DNA of 61,978 bases, counting the filler. It is 9 parts of 9 records of this genome, joined end to end, with 100 filler letters (N's around TTAATTAATTAA, not from the genome) between each part and the next. Parts side by side here need not be neighbours in the genome. Positions count along the whole stretch, not along the records: positions 28,187 to 34,131 come from SRR31156797_46689; 8 more parts are not named here. One strand, 5' to 3'. The position numbers and the translations under genes are program-made. The notes below the pieces were generated by a model. It ran no database searches. It was not told the origin of the DNA and saw only the letters and a program-made list of their open reading frames with translations. Shown in pieces: positions 5,488 to 56,742 of this stretch (its first letter is position 1; the number at the start of each line of letters is the position of its first letter).

Positions 5488-5587
5488 NNNNNNNNNNNNN
5501 NNNNNNNNNNNNNNNNNNNNNNNNNNNNNNNTTAATTAATTAANNNNNNNNNNNNNNNNNNNNNNNNNNNNNNNNNNNNNNNNNNNN
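5488..5587. other. Artificial contig spacer; identical spacers at 10932-11031, 20918-21017, 28087-28186, 34132-34231, 39988-40087, 49676-49775, 56641-56740
   Basis: 100-nt N runs containing TTAATTAATTAA (stops in all frames); gene content and composition change abruptly across them. Confidence 0.98.
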
Positions 5588-10931: not shown

Positions 10932-11229
10932 NNNNNNNNNNNNNNNNNNNNNNNNNNNNNNNNNNNNNNNNNNNNTTAATTAATTAANNNNNNNNNNNNN
11001 NNNNNNNNNNNNNNNNNNNNNNNNNNNNNNNATGATCCTGTCCAACAACTTCTGAAAATGTTTGGGGCCGGTATTTTAATGCCAGAACCTGGTAAGACAT
11101 GGTGTATCCAAAGACCTTTGATGTTTCTTTCTAAAAAGTACAAGGCTTTATACCAGAGGGGGTGTTAAGGGTCAATGTTGGGGAAGACTTTTCGGAACAA
11201 TTGCCATGTAAAATCTCATTATGGTATAA

Positions 11230-20917: not shown

Positions 20918-21017
20918 NNNNNNNNNNNNNNNNNNNNNNNNNNNNNNNNNNNNNNNNNNNNTTAATTAATTAANNNNNNNNNNNNNNNNNNNNNNNNNNN
21001 NNNNNNNNNNNNNNNNN

Positions 21018-28048: not shown

Positions 28049-28245
28049 CTACTCTTCCCCCGCCGCCCCAGCGCTCGGGGCCGTCANNNNNNNNNNNNNN
28101 NNNNNNNNNNNNNNNNNNNNNNNNNNNNNNTTAATTAATTAANNNNNNNNNNNNNNNNNNNNNNNNNNNNNNNNNNNNNNNNNNNNGAACTTAAATATGA
28201 GAAACGCTATAAATGATCCCTGCCCACAAGAGAAGGCGCAATAAT

Positions 28246-28644
28246 TTAATTTCGGTTAGGCACAAGATTAATTATGGTTTCGATAATCCCTTCATTATCG
28301 GCGGAAGGGCCAAAGGAGGCTGCCACGCCCATTTCCTTTAATTTAACGCTATCTCCCGGCGTAATGACCGAACCGCCAACAACGATCGGGATATTCACAC
28401 CTTTATCTTTAAAAAGCCTCAGTAATTCGGGAATGTAATACAAATATTCCCAGGAATGACAGCTGAGGCCCACAACATCCACGTATTCCTGGATGCTGGT
28501 CTGAACGATCATTGGCGGTGTATTAAATCTGCCCGCGTATATGACTTCCATGCCGGCGTCTCGAAGCATCCTCGAAACGGCGATCGCACCAACTTCATGT
28601 TGATCCAGGCCTAGTAGTCCCATAAATACTCTTATTTTACCCAT
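28246..28644 (-). CDS. Cobalamin-binding small subunit of an acyl-CoA mutase
   Basis: GLDQHEVGA (DxHxxG), LRDAGMEVIY, VVGLS, VVGG. Confidence 0.93.
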   Translation of the reverse strand: MGKIRVFMGLLGLDQHEVGAIAVSRMLRDAGMEVIYAGRFNTPPMIVQTSIQEYVDVVGLSCHSWEYLYYIPELLRLFKDKGVNIPIVVGGSVITPGDSVKLKEMGVAASFGPSADNEGIIETIINLVPNRN

Positions 28645-28656
28645 AAAAAAACCTCA

Positions 28657-30252
28657 CTACATCGGCGGGTCGACAAAACCGAACGGATCATAAGGCCAAT
28701 TATAGGCCATACGTAGAACGCCGCCGACTTCCTGGATGGTGGCGTTCGCTTCGGTTGCTTTAATAATTGGATACATCAGGTTTTGATCCGATTTTTTTGC
28801 TATTTGATACACCTCTTGTAAAACCGCTTTAATAAGGTCGGGATCCCTCCTTTTCTTAATTTCCTCGATCTGTTCAATACGCTCCCAGGAGGGTTCGATC
28901 TTGGACTCCGCCACCTCTTTCAACAAAGTATCCTCATGATCCGGAATCTGAAAAACGTTCAAACCGACTTTTTTAAGCTCCTTATCCTTGATCTGACGAG
29001 CATAACGTTCCATGGCCTCATCAATAAGTTTTTTGAACCAGCCTTTATCCGATAATTCCGCGGGATCCCCCATAGACTCGATTTTTACAATCATTTCCCA
29101 AATGCGGTTTTCGATCTCATCCGTCAGGGATTCCATATAGTAAGATCCCCCAAGAGGATCGATTACCTTGCTGACGCCTGTTTCCAGGTGGATTACCTGC
29201 TGGGTCCGGAGTCCAATCAAATGGGATTCCGGACTGGGCGTCCGGTAGGCTTCATCAAAAGCGGAAATCTCCAAGGCTTGGACGCCTGCCATCACCAGGG
29301 CCAGGCTCTGAATTGCGCCCCGCACTACATTCATGACCGGCTGCTGGGCGGTGAGAGACAAGCCGGACGTATGACAGGTGATAACCGTAGCCCATGAGCG
29401 TGGATCCTTGGCGCCGAATTCCTCTTTCATCATACGGGCAAACAAGCGTCTTGTCGCTCTAATCTTGGCGATTTCTTCAAAGAAATCCATACTACAGTTG
29501 ACAAGGACGGCGATTCTCGGGGCAAAGCTGTCAATATCCACGCCACGTCTGAGCAGTTCGCGCACAACGTGGCGTATTTCAATAAAGCCCAGGGCCATTT
29601 CTTCAACTGCGTCGAGTCCGGCTTCGCTGGGGAAATAGGTGTCTTCCACAAAGGCGTGGAACTTGGGCATTTCCTTGCTGCAAAATTCAATAGAGTCACA
29701 GGCCATTCGCAATCGAAGGTTAAAAGGCATCTGAACGGCGTATCCGCAGTCTTCAGCAAAGAAGGGCGCCTGAATCAGGGACCCACGGAGTTTCTTAGGA
29801 GAAACATTATGTTCTTTGGCCACAAGGTATAACCCGGCGATAGCGAAAGGCGCGGGCAACGAGTTTGAAATGGTAATGGAGTCCAACGGGATGTTTTTGT
29901 ACAGATCCCGGTAGTCCTGAAGACAACAAATGGAAACCCCTTGAGTCCCAACCGTTTTGGCCGCCAATGGATGGTCCGGGTCCAGATGGGCCTGTGTCGG
30001 GCTGTCGCCGATCACATCTATCCCCATCTGGCCTTTTTCGATCAAATATTTAATCTGTTCATTGGAGCGGGAGGGGCTGCCCTCCCCGGACAGCTCCCGT
30101 TGAATCCAGCCCCATGATTGGGCGCGAATACCCCGGGTAAATGGATATGCACCCGGATCATTGAGTTTTTCTTCATAATTGTCAGATTTATTATCATCCG
30201 GTTTATATATGGTTTTAAGAGGTATTTGAGAACGAGAGTATTGCTCGGTCAT
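28657..30252 (-). CDS. Divergent B12-dependent acyl-CoA mutase large (TIM-barrel) subunit
   Basis: PGAYPFTRG, FFEEIAKIRATRRL, SLTAQQP, DEA, LRTQQVI, DPLGGSYYMESLT; specificity motifs atypical. Confidence 0.92.
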   Translation of the reverse strand: MTEQYSRSQIPLKTIYKPDDNKSDNYEEKLNDPGAYPFTRGIRAQSWGWIQRELSGEGSPSRSNEQIKYLIEKGQMGIDVIGDSPTQAHLDPDHPLAAKTVGTQGVSICCLQDYRDLYKNIPLDSITISNSLPAPFAIAGLYLVAKEHNVSPKKLRGSLIQAPFFAEDCGYAVQMPFNLRLRMACDSIEFCSKEMPKFHAFVEDTYFPSEAGLDAVEEMALGFIEIRHVVRELLRRGVDIDSFAPRIAVLVNCSMDFFEEIAKIRATRRLFARMMKEEFGAKDPRSWATVITCHTSGLSLTAQQPVMNVVRGAIQSLALVMAGVQALEISAFDEAYRTPSPESHLIGLRTQQVIHLETGVSKVIDPLGGSYYMESLTDEIENRIWEMIVKIESMGDPAELSDKGWFKKLIDEAMERYARQIKDKELKKVGLNVFQIPDHEDTLLKEVAESKIEPSWERIEQIEEIKKRRDPDLIKAVLQEVYQIAKKSDQNLMYPIIKATEANATIQEVGGVLRMAYNWPYDPFGFVDPPM

Positions 30253-30299
30253 AAAAAGTCTCCACTGGCCTTTTAATATACTTAAAAGAGCCCCAGTTA

Positions 30300-31106
30300 T
30301 CAGCCTTTCATTTTTTCGATCTCTTTGACTTCCCTGCGACTTCCCAAGGTGCTGACGTTAAGTCCCATGCCGCCGTCAATAGGAATACTTATTCCATTGA
30401 TATAGGCTGCATGGTCGGAGGCAAGAAAGGCAATCAGGCGTCCCATTTCCTCGACCCGCCCGAAACGACGGGCAGGGATGGCGGCCAGCGAGTTGGCCTT
30501 GATCTCATCGGGCATCATGTTGACCAGTTCGGTGCCGATCAAACCGGGTAAAACAGCATTACAAGTAATGCCGTCCCTGGCGTGCTCCAGGGTTACGGTC
30601 TTTGTCAGACCGAGCAATCCGGCTTTACTGGAAGCGTACCCGATCTGTTTATGCAAACCTCCTGTGGCGGCGCCGGATGAAATATTAATAATGCGCCCCC
30701 ATTTCTTTTCAATCATTGGGCCGATGACTTCTTTTATCATGTTAAAGGCCCCCGATAGATTGATTGAGAGTTCCCGTTGCCAGGACTCGTGGGTCATTTT
30801 GGTTAAACGCGCAATATTAGCGACCAATCCTGCATTATTAACAAGAATATCAATGTCGCCCAAGGCCTGACGGATCTTTTCCACACCATCATGGATTTGC
30901 TCAGGATCCGCCACGTCAAAAATAGCGCTTTCGGACCGGCCGCCCATTTCACGGATTTCTTGGGCCGTATTTTCTACTTCAGGCAGGATGTCCGCAACAC
31001 CCACGGCAGCGCCTTCTTCGGCCAGCACCAAGGCGGCGGCCTTGCCTATGCCTCTGGCCGCGCCCGTAATTAATGCCGATTTTCCTTTTAGAAGCACGGA
31101 GGTCAT
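30300..31106 (-). CDS. SDR oxidoreductase (3-oxoacyl/3-hydroxyacyl-CoA type)
   Basis: TGAARGIG, NNAG, YASSK, PGLIGT; Asp after beta2 suggests NAD preference. Confidence 0.9.
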   Translation of the reverse strand: MTSVLLKGKSALITGAARGIGKAAALVLAEEGAAVGVADILPEVENTAQEIREMGGRSESAIFDVADPEQIHDGVEKIRQALGDIDILVNNAGLVANIARLTKMTHESWQRELSINLSGAFNMIKEVIGPMIEKKWGRIINISSGAATGGLHKQIGYASSKAGLLGLTKTVTLEHARDGITCNAVLPGLIGTELVNMMPDEIKANSLAAIPARRFGRVEEMGRLIAFLASDHAAYINGISIPIDGGMGLNVSTLGSRREVKEIEKMKG

Positions 31107-31113
31107 CTCCTTC

Positions 31114-32733
31114 CTATAAGTCTTTTATCGCGGCTTTGATAACTTTGCCGCCGGGATTCTTCGGAAGCATTTCCTTGGTAAACACAACATATTTGGGTTT
31201 CTTATAGCTGGCGATATGTTTTTTACAGTGCTCGATGATCTCATCTTCCGCAGCCGTCATGCCCGGTTTCAAGAAAATAACGGCTTTCACCGCCTCCTGC
31301 ATCACCTGGTCGGGAACGCCGACAACGGCAGCTTCCATGACAGACGGGTGCTGCATAAGAGCGTTTTCCACTTCCAGGCAATAAATGTTTTCTCCTCCGG
31401 AAACGATCATGTCCTTTAAGCGGTCCACAATATAGACATAACCGTCCTCGTCCATATATCCCATATCGCCGGTGTGGAGCCAGCCGTCCACAAATGTATT
31501 TCGGTCGGCCTCGGGCTTGTTCCAATAACCTTGAACTACGGTGGGGCCCTGGATGCAAACTTCACCCACTTCCCTGGTCGGGAGGTCGTCGCCGCTTTGA
31601 GGCTCTACGATTTTAACCTGCAACACCGGCATGGGCTTGCCTACTGATTCGGGGATGCGCAGGATGTCTTCATGGGTGTTCCAGGTGGCGATGGATGTCG
31701 CTTCGGTCAATCCGTAAACATTTCCGAATTGTACATTTGGAAAGGCGCTGGTCATTTGATTGAATAATTCAACAGGCACCGGGCTTCCGCCAAAGATAAA
31801 CAATTTAAGGGAGCTTAAATCGAAATCCTGGTACGGGGCCATGTTCAGGATCACCCAAAACATGGTCGCCACGCCCGCGCCAAGGGTTATCTTTTCTTCC
31901 TGAATCCTGGTCAAGGTGTCAACAGGATCAAACGCTGAGCGAATAATCGAGCAACCGCCGCTTATCACTCCCATCCCCGTTTGTGAATTAATCCCGGTAG
32001 CATGGAACATGGGGGCGATAATAAGCTGACGAGAATTTTCATCCACCTGGCTCATTTTTAATCCATTGACGGCATTACAGACATAGTTACGATGTGTTTG
32101 CAAAGCCCCTTTCGGCAGGCCGGTCGTCCCGGATGTATACAGTATCGCCGCGCCGTCATCCTCGGTTACCGGGGGATCAGCAACGATCTTTTGGCCAGAA
32201 TCATTTTTTAAAAGATCATTATAGCTGCCGGCTTCATCCGGGATTTCGTCGCCGGTGACGTAAATCCCTTTCAGGGTTTCCACATTGTCCTTGATTCCGT
32301 TTATCGTTTCCAAAAATTCCGGCCCCATTAAGAGGATATTCGCACCGGAATCATTCAACATGTATTCCAATTCAGGCCCGGCGCACCGCCAGTTCAGCAG
32401 GACATTGACAGCGCCAAGGCGTGCGTTGGCGAAATAGGAAACAACATATTCCCACGAATTGGCCATCAGGATTGCTACCCGGTCGCCTTTTTTTACTCCG
32501 AGATTCCTTAAGGAACCCGCTAAATTGTTGCAGAGCCGCTCAAATTCGTTATAGGTGAGTCTGGCGTTATCATCCACCAAGGCTTCGTGTTCGCCAAATT
32601 TACCAACTGTATTTTCCAGCATTTCAACAATTGTCCTGGGGCGATCCTGGTACACATTAATCTCAACGCCGTTGTAAACTTCCTGAACAATTCCTTCATA
32701 GGCTTCAGCGGGAAAACTACCTTTTTCCATCAT
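31114..32733 (-). CDS. Acyl-CoA synthetase (class I adenylate-forming)
   Basis: YTSGTTGLPKG, YGLTEA, GWLHTGD, DRLKDMIVSGGENIY, PGGKV. Confidence 0.95.
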   Translation of the reverse strand: MMEKGSFPAEAYEGIVQEVYNGVEINVYQDRPRTIVEMLENTVGKFGEHEALVDDNARLTYNEFERLCNNLAGSLRNLGVKKGDRVAILMANSWEYVVSYFANARLGAVNVLLNWRCAGPELEYMLNDSGANILLMGPEFLETINGIKDNVETLKGIYVTGDEIPDEAGSYNDLLKNDSGQKIVADPPVTEDDGAAILYTSGTTGLPKGALQTHRNYVCNAVNGLKMSQVDENSRQLIIAPMFHATGINSQTGMGVISGGCSIIRSAFDPVDTLTRIQEEKITLGAGVATMFWVILNMAPYQDFDLSSLKLFIFGGSPVPVELFNQMTSAFPNVQFGNVYGLTEATSIATWNTHEDILRIPESVGKPMPVLQVKIVEPQSGDDLPTREVGEVCIQGPTVVQGYWNKPEADRNTFVDGWLHTGDMGYMDEDGYVYIVDRLKDMIVSGGENIYCLEVENALMQHPSVMEAAVVGVPDQVMQEAVKAVIFLKPGMTAAEDEIIEHCKKHIASYKKPKYVVFTKEMLPKNPGGKVIKAAIKDL

Positions 32734-32787
32734 AATCCTCCTTAGTCACTATGAATCCAAATCAGAATTTGAAAGTCGAGTTCCGCA

Positions 32788-33768
32788 TTATTCGCCGTTA
32801 AAGAGGCGCCGTGGATTGTCTTCAATTATGGTTTTAATTTGTTCATCGTTTACTCCGCCTTGTTTCAGGGCGGGGATAATGTTTTTGAACAGATGAGTTG
32901 GATACCAATTGGCAACTAACGGCAAAGCAGCTTCCGGCAGATTCAAAGGTCGGCCCAACCAGGTCATGATCGTATCATGAGAAATCATCATTTTATCGGC
33001 GTTTCCTCTTTTGATCAATTCAATCAAAACCTTATACCTATCTTCATCCATGGGGCAACCAGCCAGACCTTGAAGACCCATTCGGTCCCAAGACACGTAT
33101 ACGCCCCTTTTGAGTGTATCTTCCTGGTAATCCAGATCCAGATTGTCGGACATATGGCCGATCATGAGACGTTTGGGATCCGCCCCGTTTGCGATTAGAA
33201 AATCAGCCTGTTCCGGCGCCATGGTACCTTCGTGGGTATGAGTGATTATCGGCACTCCCGTATCTCTTGAAACTTCAGCAGCGGCCTTGAAAATCATTTT
33301 TTCGTAATCAGTGATCTCCCCCTTGCTGGAGCCTACTTTTATAACGCCGGCTTTAATGCCTGTTCCACAGATGCCTTCCGTCACTTCCTTATGGAAAAGC
33401 TCATACAATTCGCCGCTGACTTCTCCCAGGGAAGCGCGAAACTTCCAATAGGTTGGAGATCCTTCCTCTTCGAAATAGTATCCAGTCGAGCAGATGATGT
33501 TTACGCCGGTTTTTTCGGAAACTTCTTTCAAGACTTCCACATTTCGACCGCCGTCCAGAGGCGTGGCGTCCACGTAGCTTTTCAAGCCATAGCCTTTTAA
33601 TTCCTCGAAGACGGCCATAGCATTGTTGACAATGGCCTCCGGATCAAAAGGGGCGATAGTCCGGTCGCCTTCCCATCCCGGATAACCAAAAAAAACGTGT
33701 TCGTGCATTAATGTAATGCCCAGTTCATCCGTGGAAATAGGACCCAAAACCGTGTTCACTTGCGCCAT
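32788..33768 (-). CDS. Phosphotriesterase-like lactonase/hydrolase
   Basis: VNTVLGPI, TLMHEH, GVIKVG (carboxylated Lys site), ITHT, IGH, ISHD binuclear metal ligands. Confidence 0.92.
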   Translation of the reverse strand: MAQVNTVLGPISTDELGITLMHEHVFFGYPGWEGDRTIAPFDPEAIVNNAMAVFEELKGYGLKSYVDATPLDGGRNVEVLKEVSEKTGVNIICSTGYYFEEEGSPTYWKFRASLGEVSGELYELFHKEVTEGICGTGIKAGVIKVGSSKGEITDYEKMIFKAAAEVSRDTGVPIITHTHEGTMAPEQADFLIANGADPKRLMIGHMSDNLDLDYQEDTLKRGVYVSWDRMGLQGLAGCPMDEDRYKVLIELIKRGNADKMMISHDTIMTWLGRPLNLPEAALPLVANWYPTHLFKNIIPALKQGGVNDEQIKTIIEDNPRRLFNGE

Positions 33769-33964
33769 GAGAGTTCCTCCTTTTCAACATTGTTTAAGTC
33801 TTAATCAGAAAGCATTACTCATTTTTGCGTCGTCAGCCTGTTATACTCGGCCTACAGACCCGAATTTTATATCTGCGCTAATTACAGTTATTATCCTTTC
33901 CATTCTCCGTTTGATTCAGGACAGGTTTTATTACAAGCCGCATTTTATTTAAGATTACTTCTGT

Positions 33965-34131
33965 TCAGGCTTTTTTAAGGGCGATTGCTTCAACGACCAA
34001 TTCCTCGGCCAGCTTGAGTGTCGGCTGTAAATGGATATCTTCATGTTTAGATTGAGATTTTATGCCGTCAAGTTGGATAACGCCGACAAAAAGCCCCCAA
34101 AGGATGTCCGTCAACTGGAAGACGTTCATCC
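33965..34131 (-). CDS. Probable TetR-family regulator, C-terminal fragment
   Basis: ...LTDILWGLFVGVIQL...HLQPTLKLAEELVVEAI* resembles deltaproteobacterial TetR C-termini; HTH not in window. Confidence 0.5.
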
Positions 34132-34232
34132 NNNNNNNNNNNNNNNNNNNNNNNNNNNNNNNNNNNNNNNNNNNNTTAATTAATTAANNNNNNNNNNNNN
34201 NNNNNNNNNNNNNNNNNNNNNNNNNNNNNNNC

Positions 34233-39987: not shown

Positions 39988-40088
39988 NNNNNNNNNNNNN
40001 NNNNNNNNNNNNNNNNNNNNNNNNNNNNNNNTTAATTAATTAANNNNNNNNNNNNNNNNNNNNNNNNNNNNNNNNNNNNNNNNNNNNG

Positions 40089-49675: not shown

Positions 49676-49919
49676 NNNNNNNNNNNNNNNNNNNNNNNNN
49701 NNNNNNNNNNNNNNNNNNNTTAATTAATTAANNNNNNNNNNNNNNNNNNNNNNNNNNNNNNNNNNNNNNNNNNNNAAACAGCAAAAAACCGTTGAAAAAA
49801 CTGCTAAAGTCAAATTCAGAGCAGGGCTATTCAGAACGGGTCAATGAATTCTGGGAAATGAACTTAAAATTCTGTCCGGGCAGGATAGAATAACACGCCG
49901 GCCCGGACAGATAATTATA

Positions 49920-56640: not shown

Positions 56641-56742
56641 NNNNNNNNNNNNNNNNNNNNNNNNNNNNNNNNNNNNNNNNNNNNTTAATTAATTAANNNN
56701 NNNNNNNNNNNNNNNNNNNNNNNNNNNNNNNNNNNNNNNNAG

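Follow-up and report, generated by a model that had tools for sequence, protein, structure and literature searches.

What reaction does an acyl-CoA mutase catalyze when its active site matches no standard specificity signature of its family? The question is raised by a gene at positions 28657–30252 on the minus strand of the analyzed window, a 61,978-nucleotide stretch of DNA in which nine contigs are joined by eight N-spacers, and for which the first-pass annotation had described such a departure. Our results establish this gene as a variant acyl-CoA mutase, intact and under selection, that does not conform to the signatures of methylmalonyl-CoA mutase (MCM), ethylmalonyl-CoA mutase (ECM), isobutyryl-CoA mutase (ICM), 2-hydroxyisobutyryl-CoA mutase (HCM) and pivalyl-CoA mutase (PCM), so that its pocket is indeed unlike that of the standard enzymes. 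As for its function, we give an even chance to an adenosylcobalamin-dependent mutase whose bulky, non-carboxylated hydroxy-acyl-CoA substrate would be rearranged to a 3-hydroxyacyl-CoA destined for oxidation and cleavage, by analogy with HCM.

The open reading frame (ORF) encodes 531 residues and scores well above the cut-offs of the large-subunit models PF01642 (451.6 bits, cut-off 22.1) and TIGR00641 (410.7 bits, cut-off 303.8), while remaining far below the threshold of 1500 for NF045497, the model for the fused IcmF protein (157.8 bits). AlphaFold (AF2) modeling of the large subunit gave a mean pLDDT of 87.3, and a Foldseek comparison matched the model to mutases with TM scores of 0.85–0.87. 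The barrel is the same as that of MCM (EC 5.4.99.2; 4REQ, 2XIQ): structure comparison returned Z 45.8 and rmsd 2.1 over 486 aligned residues for human MCM, Z 45.1 and rmsd 2.0 for HCM (4r3u), and Z 43–46 for mutase alpha chains in general, as opposed to Z 31–32 for beta chains. These scores describe the whole fold, and the residue equivalences given below come from sequence alignments. Databases and the atlas label relatives of this protein as methylmalonyl-CoA mutase or as hypothetical; the former label is probably wrong.

To place the active-site residues, phmmer alignments against 4R3U, 2XIJ and 5REQ were combined with a MAFFT alignment including the paralogues of five carrier genomes and with an hhalign profile–profile comparison between eight references and an alignment of 99 family members, which gave a probability of 100 and zero gaps across strands 4–8. 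MCM residues carry the P. shermanii numbering, and roles as carbonyl, adenosyl/corrin or CoA contacts are those assigned in MCM. The eight predicted barrel strands (residues 50–55, 77–82, 127–131, 156–161, 198–204, 247–252, 290–295 and 326–329) agree with the gap-free register; the structure prediction that the first-pass annotation had proposed as a check fits at the level of fold and strands. The four departing motifs it had named were confirmed at 30108–30079, 29784–29743, 29652–29632 and 29379–29368, and they are given here together with that of strand 8:

30079–30108, minus strand: strand 1 motif WIQRELSGEG, residues 49–58; Arg52 is equivalent to Arg87 and Leu54 stands at the Tyr89 position.
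29743–29784, minus strand: strand 4 and loop, GSLIQAPFFAEDCG, residues 157–170; Ile160 stands at Gln197 and Gly170 at Arg207.
29632–29652, minus strand: strand 5 motif FVEDTYF, residues 201–207; Asp204 stands at Ser241, Tyr206 is equivalent to Tyr243 and Phe207 stands at His244.
29368–29379, minus strand: strand 7 motif TCHT, residues 292–295; His294 stands at Gln330.
29248–29271, minus strand: strand 8 motif EISAFDEA; Glu328 stands at His364 and Glu334 is equivalent to Glu370.

The same register pairs Ile81 with Ala116 (Asp117 in HCM) and Glu210 with Glu247, and reveals further replacements in Asp79 (Ser114), Leu250 (Phe287), Val290 (Arg326) and a serine at Asn366. The earlier assignments of Leu54 to the Tyr89 position, of a lost Arg207 and of a phenylalanine at His244 are therefore upheld by a register free of gaps. 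In strand 4, the glutamine of 'LIQ' aligns with Asn198 and not with Gln197 in the ungapped register of both hhalign and MAFFT; phmmer alone inserts a one-residue gap there, and the intermediate paralogue L092 (LRGSIQNDPIHFRYCGF) backs the ungapped reading. Altogether, the MCM residues Tyr89, Gln197, Arg207, His244, Phe287, Arg326, His328, Gln330, His364 and Asn366 are replaced, and Arg87, Ser164, Thr166, Thr195, Tyr243, Glu247, Arg283 and Glu370 have kept equivalents. The latter include the presumed adenosyl/corrin contacts (Glu334, Tyr206 and Glu210 for Glu370, Tyr243 and Glu247), and the residues presumably lining the CoA path are retained as Arg52, Ser129, Ser131, Ser158, Arg246 and, mostly, Gln325. 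Among the CoA contacts, those at Ser114, Ser239, Ser285, Arg326, His328 and Ser362 are altered.

The carboxylate clamp formed by Tyr89 and Arg207 in MCM and ECM is absent, with Leu54 and Gly170 in its place; paralogues whose motifs read as MCM-type and ECM-type (L081 and L097) carry both the tyrosine and the arginine. A non-carboxylated substrate, as anticipated from the motifs, is likely, considering this absence and the invariant acids Asp204 and Glu328 near the site. Since references of the HCM, ICM/IcmF and PCM types have glutamine or asparagine at position 207, loss of the arginine excludes only MCM and ECM. The missing Arg207 and the GEG of strand 1 are thus real but not unusual, the latter recurring as FAGEG in IcmF-type sequences.

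By sequence, the best match of known structure is HcmAB of Aquincola tertiaricarbonis (4R3U, E 5.8e-87), with which the window mutase shares split large and small subunits, the lack of arginine at 207 and an aliphatic residue at 89. Its identity to the HCM reference Xaut_5021 is 34%. HCM has Ile89, Asp116/117 and glutamine at 207, and keeps Gln197, His244, Gln330 and His364, whereas positions 89, 116, 197, 244, 330 and 364 of the window mutase are occupied by Leu, Ile, Ile, Phe, His and Glu. A second point of comparison is Xaut_5043/5044 of Xanthobacter autotrophicus, which is reportedly the pivalyl-CoA mutase (Kitanishi 2015), although the record is titled 'methylmalonyl-CoA mutase, large subunit'. 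This enzyme resembles ours in its leucine at the Tyr89 position (WTQRQLIGLG), its lack of Arg207 and its two subunits; however, the two are only 29% identical, lie 2.8 apart in the tree and belong to separate clades. PCM retains Gln197, His244 and Gln330, so that, as suspected earlier, remodeling in the window mutase goes beyond that of PCM; at Tyr243, PCM has glutamine and the window mutase keeps the tyrosine. The neighbors also differ: Xaut_5043 is accompanied by MeaB, a PaaD-type protein and a phenylacetate-type ligase, without the pairing of short-chain dehydrogenase (SDR) and crotonase described below. With IcmAB/IcmF (5CJT), the mutase shares the lack of Arg207, the GEG after position 89 and an arginine preceding the glycine of strand 4. 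Unlike them, it has leucine instead of phenylalanine at 89, no His244, Gln197 or Gln330 and no MeaB fusion, and ICM/IcmF-type paralogues are 25–34% identical to it.

The replaced residues proved to be a shared feature of the relatives. Of 383 pooled sequences, the 363 with nearly complete length and an identity of 48% or more were retained, and reduction at 90% identity left 246 non-redundant relatives, 51–99% identical to the window mutase. The pool includes 80 metagenome loci retrieved with patterns such as EDTY and EISAFDE, which makes these columns partly circular there; a second set, drawn from genome loci without motif selection and made up of 120 proteins plus 83 ORF fragments, gave the same picture. 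With the most frequent residue of the median site reaching 73%, Arg52, Leu54, Asp79, His199, Tyr206, Leu250, His294, Glu328, Ser330 and Glu334 were each present in 246/246, Ile81 in 245, Asp204 in 244 and Glu210 in 237. Position 160 is always L, I, V or A and never Gln; position 170 is G, S, A or C in 240 of 246, with no arginine in the set not selected by motif; and position 207 is phenylalanine in 215 relatives and tyrosine in 31. In the unselected genome-loci set, Glu328 was found in 200/200 and Glu334 in 200/201. Cys293 of TCHT varies. Across six pairs of relatives, the ratio of nonsynonymous to synonymous substitution (dN/dS) was 0.05–0.08, and synonymous sites are saturated when the window gene is compared with six relatives. 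Judged by these alignments, the replaced pocket residues reflect neither chance nor decay, being common to the relatives and under purifying selection; the degenerating gene, for which variable ELSGEG and EDTYF segments would have spoken, is not borne out. Two family copies are frame-broken (L079:9998-11486 and L080:9995-11445); in L080 several adjacent genes are broken as well, which suggests an assembly error.

In the small subunit, the DxHxxG motif reads DQHEVG (D14-Q-H16-E-V-G19, 28588–28605), and among 130 related small subunits Asp14 and His16 are present in all and Gly19 in 128, in support of the earlier view that B12 use is intact. Two features are peculiar to the family: the motif SCHSWEY (28444–28464), in which Ser61, Ser64, Trp65 and Glu66 of SxHSWE occur in 130/130 at a place presumably held by SxLxG in the references, and an aliphatic residue, again in 130/130, four positions before the DxHxxG aspartate, where we would expect the lysine of the triad. 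Together they may mean that a contact with the corrin, or the interface between the subunits, has changed. A cognate small subunit lies near the mutase in 70/80 genome loci and 68/80 metagenome loci.

To locate the family among other mutases, a profile search was run over 1.84 billion 50%-cluster representatives. Four family representatives scored 826–656 bits, and full-length outsiders, 28–39% identical, reached at most 476 bits. In a FastTree phylogeny of 156 sequences with a midpoint root, all 14 family rows group in a single clade (support 1.0, stem 0.81), and below that root no characterized reference falls in the same clade. The closest named relatives, at about 70% identity, come from Desulfobacterota-type metagenome-assembled genomes (MAGs), which may point to such an origin for the contig, and record titles extend the distribution to Bacillota, Actinomycetes, Acidobacteria and alpha-, beta- and gammaproteobacteria. 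The spread is wide but rare and patchy: counting the center genome, carriers make up 11/401 genomes in the G003 phylum (two of them with at least three copies), 2/162 in the G001 class and 2/401 in the G004 family, and among 337 plasmid records no family member was found, the best match being 36% identical. Desulfotruncus alcoholivorax DSM 16058, whose locus L020 comprises mutase, small subunit, crotonase, ligase and SDR, is the only cultured carrier among the records examined. All five carrier genomes checked contain additional mutase genes, some of them with canonical YAGF or FAGF signatures, and the family mutase therefore need not perform a housekeeping role. Two MAGs hold three family copies each in separate operons (L011, L023, L076 and L012, L013, L016), some without an adjoining small subunit; such multiplicity suggests a class of related substrates.

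Outside the family, the best 150 representatives were sampled, of which 129 were long enough and 126 did not belong to it. His244 is missing in 76/125 and both His244 and Gln197 in 47, and leucine occupies position 89 in 18/126, shares that are inflated because rows were picked by likeness, because 50% clustering collapses canonical enzymes and because some divergent rows are possibly misaligned. The loss of His244 noted in the first-pass annotation is accordingly real, yet frequent among uncharacterized relatives. Aspartate or glutamate at 364 accompanies histidine at 330 in 9/17 outside representatives, compared with 20/109 of those without the histidine (uncorrected for kinship). By sequence comparison, the clade is a single branch within a large radiation that is itself unstudied and in which His244 loss is common, which tempers the surprise. 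Within this radiation, the PF01642 proteins P0126–P0270 have wholly different pockets, each resembling a separate unstudied subfamily. Other paralogues with remodeled pockets, encoded in carrier genomes (L092:1315-3096, L088:1-3069, L089:1477-3114, L091:1474-3237 and L093:1477-3240) include two in which a run of glycines replaces the HxQT strand and one that stands midway between the canonical enzymes and the family. In the literature searched, at abstract level with few subscription papers, no description of the clade was found, and an earlier description may exist elsewhere.

The N-spacers of the window (5488–5587, 10932–11031, 20918–21017, 28087–28186, 34132–34231, 39988–40087, 49676–49775 and 56641–56740) mark its contig borders, so genes outside 28187–34131 are not neighbors of the mutase. 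Contig GC content spans 26% to 60%, and the window may therefore mix organisms. The mutase contig itself carries the following features:

28187–34131, no strand: operon contig (5.9 kb), flanked by the N runs 28087–28186 and 34132–34231.
33965–34131, minus strand: TetR-type regulator associated with the family, 3' end only, truncated where the contig stops (44% identical over 50 aa to the L003 TetR, E 3e-18).
32788–33768, minus strand: phosphotriesterase-like lactonase of the Geobacillus/Dr0930 type (PF02126; E 1e-113 to 3f4c/3tn4).
31114–32733, minus strand: AMP-forming acyl-CoA ligase, long-chain type (NF004837, 508.8 bits, cut-off 476).
30300–31106, minus strand: FabG-like SDR (PF13561).
28657–30252, minus strand: acyl-CoA mutase large (substrate-binding TIM-barrel) subunit, 531 aa (PF01642, TIGR00641, AF2 model, structure comparison).
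28246–28644, minus strand: B12-binding small subunit, 132 aa (PF02310 and TIGR00640, above cut-off).

All genes of the contig lie on the minus strand, in the order TetR 3' end, lactonase, ligase, SDR, large subunit and small subunit; the five whole genes are separated by 54, 7, 47 and 12 bases, which fits a single operon, and the contig terminates 59 bases past the small subunit. An Rfam scan of the window returned zero matches.

To assess which of these partners are general, neighborhoods were compared across 80 genome and 80 metagenome loci, many of them cut by contig ends. The most frequent catabolic partner is an SDR orthologue (at least 47% identical), found near the mutase in 30/80 genome and 44/80 metagenome loci; its conserved Asp39 after strand 2 marks it as probably NAD-type. 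On plasmids, no SDR orthologue was detected at E 1e-55. A PRK12478-type crotonase (e.g., L003:2272-3159 and orthologues), absent from the window's contig, occurs in 20/80 genome and 19/80 metagenome loci. It reads GGGS..ALL.D and TPYSRvWG, the arginine of the latter being invariant, and because glutamate is missing at both catalytic positions of hydratases, it is probably not a hydratase. Three plasmid-borne crotonase relatives (L206–L208) lie in mutase-free clusters. Some CoA ligase is present in 33/80 genome loci (five of these ligases at least 62% identical) and 24/80 metagenome loci. MeaB occurs in 20/80 and TetR in 14/80 genome loci, branched-chain-type ABC transporter genes recur, and in L002, L010, L014 and L018 the mutase has a 3-hydroxyacyl-CoA dehydrogenase no more than a few genes away. 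The lactonase, closely related to Geobacillus and Deinococcus enzymes, is an accessory, lineage-specific gene. Compared with the motifs first singled out, the loss of Gln197, the invariant His294, Glu328 and Asp204, the SxHSWE motif, and the SDR and crotonase as recurrent partners, none of which had been recorded before, are better clues to function.

Other neighbors are more local. A Pfam scan covering 119 of 324 candidate neighbors from the 80 genome loci identified a hydantoinase-like pair, members of the Asp/Glu-racemase and ketopantoate-reductase families, MaoC/PrpD proteins and CoA transferases, none of them widely recurrent among these 119. In L075:5526-9915, a hydantoinase/oxoprolinase A–B pair directly upstream of the mutase provides a second case of a ring-opening hydrolase at the head of an operon. 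In Rhodospirillaceae/Alphaproteobacteria MAGs (L036, L042, L047 and L048), the mutase points away from a ligase and a gene of the ketopantoate-reductase family, in divergent orientation; pantoate was considered as a substrate and dropped, as the reductase is confined to one narrow Rhodospirillaceae group. A protein of 208–225 aa in which His and Cys motifs are conserved adjoins the mutase in L007:2648-3274, L014:6835-7512, L018:2935-3606, L106, L107 and L113 and occurs in 5/80 metagenome loci at 47% identity or more; its 208-aa form has no Pfam match and only a weak atlas lead to DUF6125 (0.85, below 0.9).

Starting from the observed fold, cofactor subunit, conservation and selection, and gene partners, we infer the chemical steps as follows, with HCM as a working analogy, namely a hydroxy-acyl-CoA mutase feeding 3-hydroxyacyl-CoA. 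The CoA ligase, joined in the window lineage by the lactonase, would deliver a non-carboxylated, bulky hydroxy-acyl-CoA, branched or cyclic. The adenosyl radical, for which Glu334 and Tyr206 are kept, would abstract a hydrogen, and the CoA-carbonyl would migrate to the adjacent carbon, which would leave a hydroxyl already present (e.g., gamma or tertiary alpha) beta to the thioester. The NAD-type SDR would then oxidize the 3-hydroxyacyl-CoA, and the glutamate-less crotonase, where present, may cleave the 3-oxoacyl-CoA, possibly with ring opening. Ligase, mutase, SDR and crotonase would be coherent as one route if a one-carbon carbonyl shift put the hydroxyl in the beta position. In the pocket, Leu54, Ile81, Ile160, Gly170, Phe207 and Leu250 are predicted to form an enlarged apolar cavity, suited to a bulky acid that carries no free carboxylate, and His294 and Glu328, on neighboring strands, may together with Asp204 replace the polar role of His244 and Gln197 from the opposite side of the barrel. 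For HCM, an equivalent carbonyl shift on a tertiary alpha-hydroxy acid is part of the family chemistry, according to PMC2847961. By the same shift, a gamma-hydroxy acid, such as the product of lactone opening or a ring acid hydroxylated at position 3, would become a beta-hydroxy acid open to oxidation and cleavage. We regard it as rather doubtful that the rearrangement is new to the fold, be it this gamma-to-beta hydroxy-acyl-CoA shift or the migration of a non-thioester group by way of His294–Glu328(–Asp204), and the gamma-to-beta shift taken specifically is unlikely.

Several observations weigh against the hydroxy-acyl-CoA reading. His244 and Gln197, present in all characterized references examined, are both replaced, so ordinary thioester migration would have to be assumed, and the outer CoA contacts are altered (a shorter Tyr75/Arg82 loop, Arg326 to Val, His328 to Thr and Ser114 to Asp). 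In all five genomes with a stand-alone mutase, which are incomplete MAGs, no SDR above 40% identity was found, although in three of them the crotonase is encoded elsewhere (62%, 57% and 48%). The neighboring ligases are of several unrelated kinds, and the crotonase could be a decarboxylase. The lactonase is near the mutase in 3/160 loci (1/80 genome and 2/80 metagenome), and a lactone-specific role for the whole family was rejected on this count.

The HCM analogy competes with other chemistries, each of which accounts for part of the evidence. If the enzyme acted like PCM, it would remove the quaternary alpha carbon of a bulky acyl-CoA, the hydroxyl being irrelevant and the SDR and crotonase acting later in the pathway. 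The invariant Leu54, matched in Xaut_5043, and the large apolar pocket would suit such a role, as would the flavin oxidoreductase, thioesterase and lipid-type genes of the paralogous operons L011, L012 and L076. We nevertheless consider it distinctly unlikely: the two enzymes differ in clade and in three residues that PCM retains, an acyl-CoA dehydrogenase is not in the recurring core (7/80 loci), and the invariant Asp204, His294 and Glu328 are left unexplained. The quaternary-carbon substrate once proposed from the leucine at 89 gains no specific support, as that leucine recurs in outside representatives and the clade stands apart from PCM. Different radical chemistry, in which an enoyl or ketone acyl group migrates (vinylogous shift, ring expansion) or a heteroatom bound by Asp204, His294 and Glu328 is shifted or eliminated, would explain why the presumed thioester-carbonyl contacts His244 and Gln197 have become apolar in all 246 relatives as a new invariant acid/histidine set arose, and would agree with the long stem branch and with a small subunit that has its own SxHSWE and lacks the lysine before DxHxxG. 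It is quite unlikely in our view, since the frequent loss of His244, alone or with Gln197, elsewhere in the radiation indicates that such loss may be widely tolerated, the mid-barrel CoA-path residues are kept and His294 could be a simple substitute.

A dicarboxylyl-CoA or other charged acyl-CoA might instead be bound anew, the substituted malonyl-CoA product being decarboxylated by the crotonase that lacks both catalytic glutamates and carries the invariant arginine in TPYSRvWG. Mutase and crotonase-type decarboxylase are paired in E. coli scpA–scpB, and the L197 crotonase orthologue adjoins a gene that, read by eye, resembles a carboxyltransferase. PMC8360864 provides a precedent in the aryl-succinyl-CoA mutase IaaGH, likened here by description, and a parallel in the benzylmalonyl-CoA route of indoleacetate degradation. 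With no Tyr89 or Arg207, with the invariant acids Asp204 and Glu328 near the site, which would repel a carboxylate, and with a crotonase that accompanies the mutase in no more than roughly one locus in four against a stronger SDR link, this option is very unlikely. That the gene is degenerating, or encodes an inactive structural subunit akin to the MCM beta chain, is scarcely credible: many canonical active-site residues are gone and two copies are frame-broken, but the ORF is intact, the new residues are invariant, selection is purifying with saturated synonymous sites, Glu370, Tyr243 and Glu247 are kept, the mutase has its own B12 subunit, and its fold is closer to alpha than to beta chains.

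To our knowledge, only a handful of acyl-CoA mutase reactions have been characterized, acting on C3–C5 acyl groups or a few substituted succinyl-CoAs. All references examined keep His244 and Gln197, and a conserved clade without both implies an unrecognized carbon-skeleton rearrangement in natural carbon turnover. Given that the clade extends from sulfate reducers to Proteobacteria, Acidobacteria and Actinobacteria, correcting the methylmalonyl-CoA mutase label would mend metabolic reconstructions. The function is accessible to testing, with the ligase, dehydrogenase and crotonase co-encoded and the carrier DSM 16058 in culture, and a large-pocket mutase would be useful for pathway engineering; in a related enzyme, rational changes of first-shell residues led to inactivation, as stated in PMC11599936. 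Should the rearrangement prove novel, it would represent a new degradation route for lactones and hydroxylated rings in the gamma-to-beta case, and the clade would offer a way into the large radiation of sediment-bacterial mutases that lack His244.

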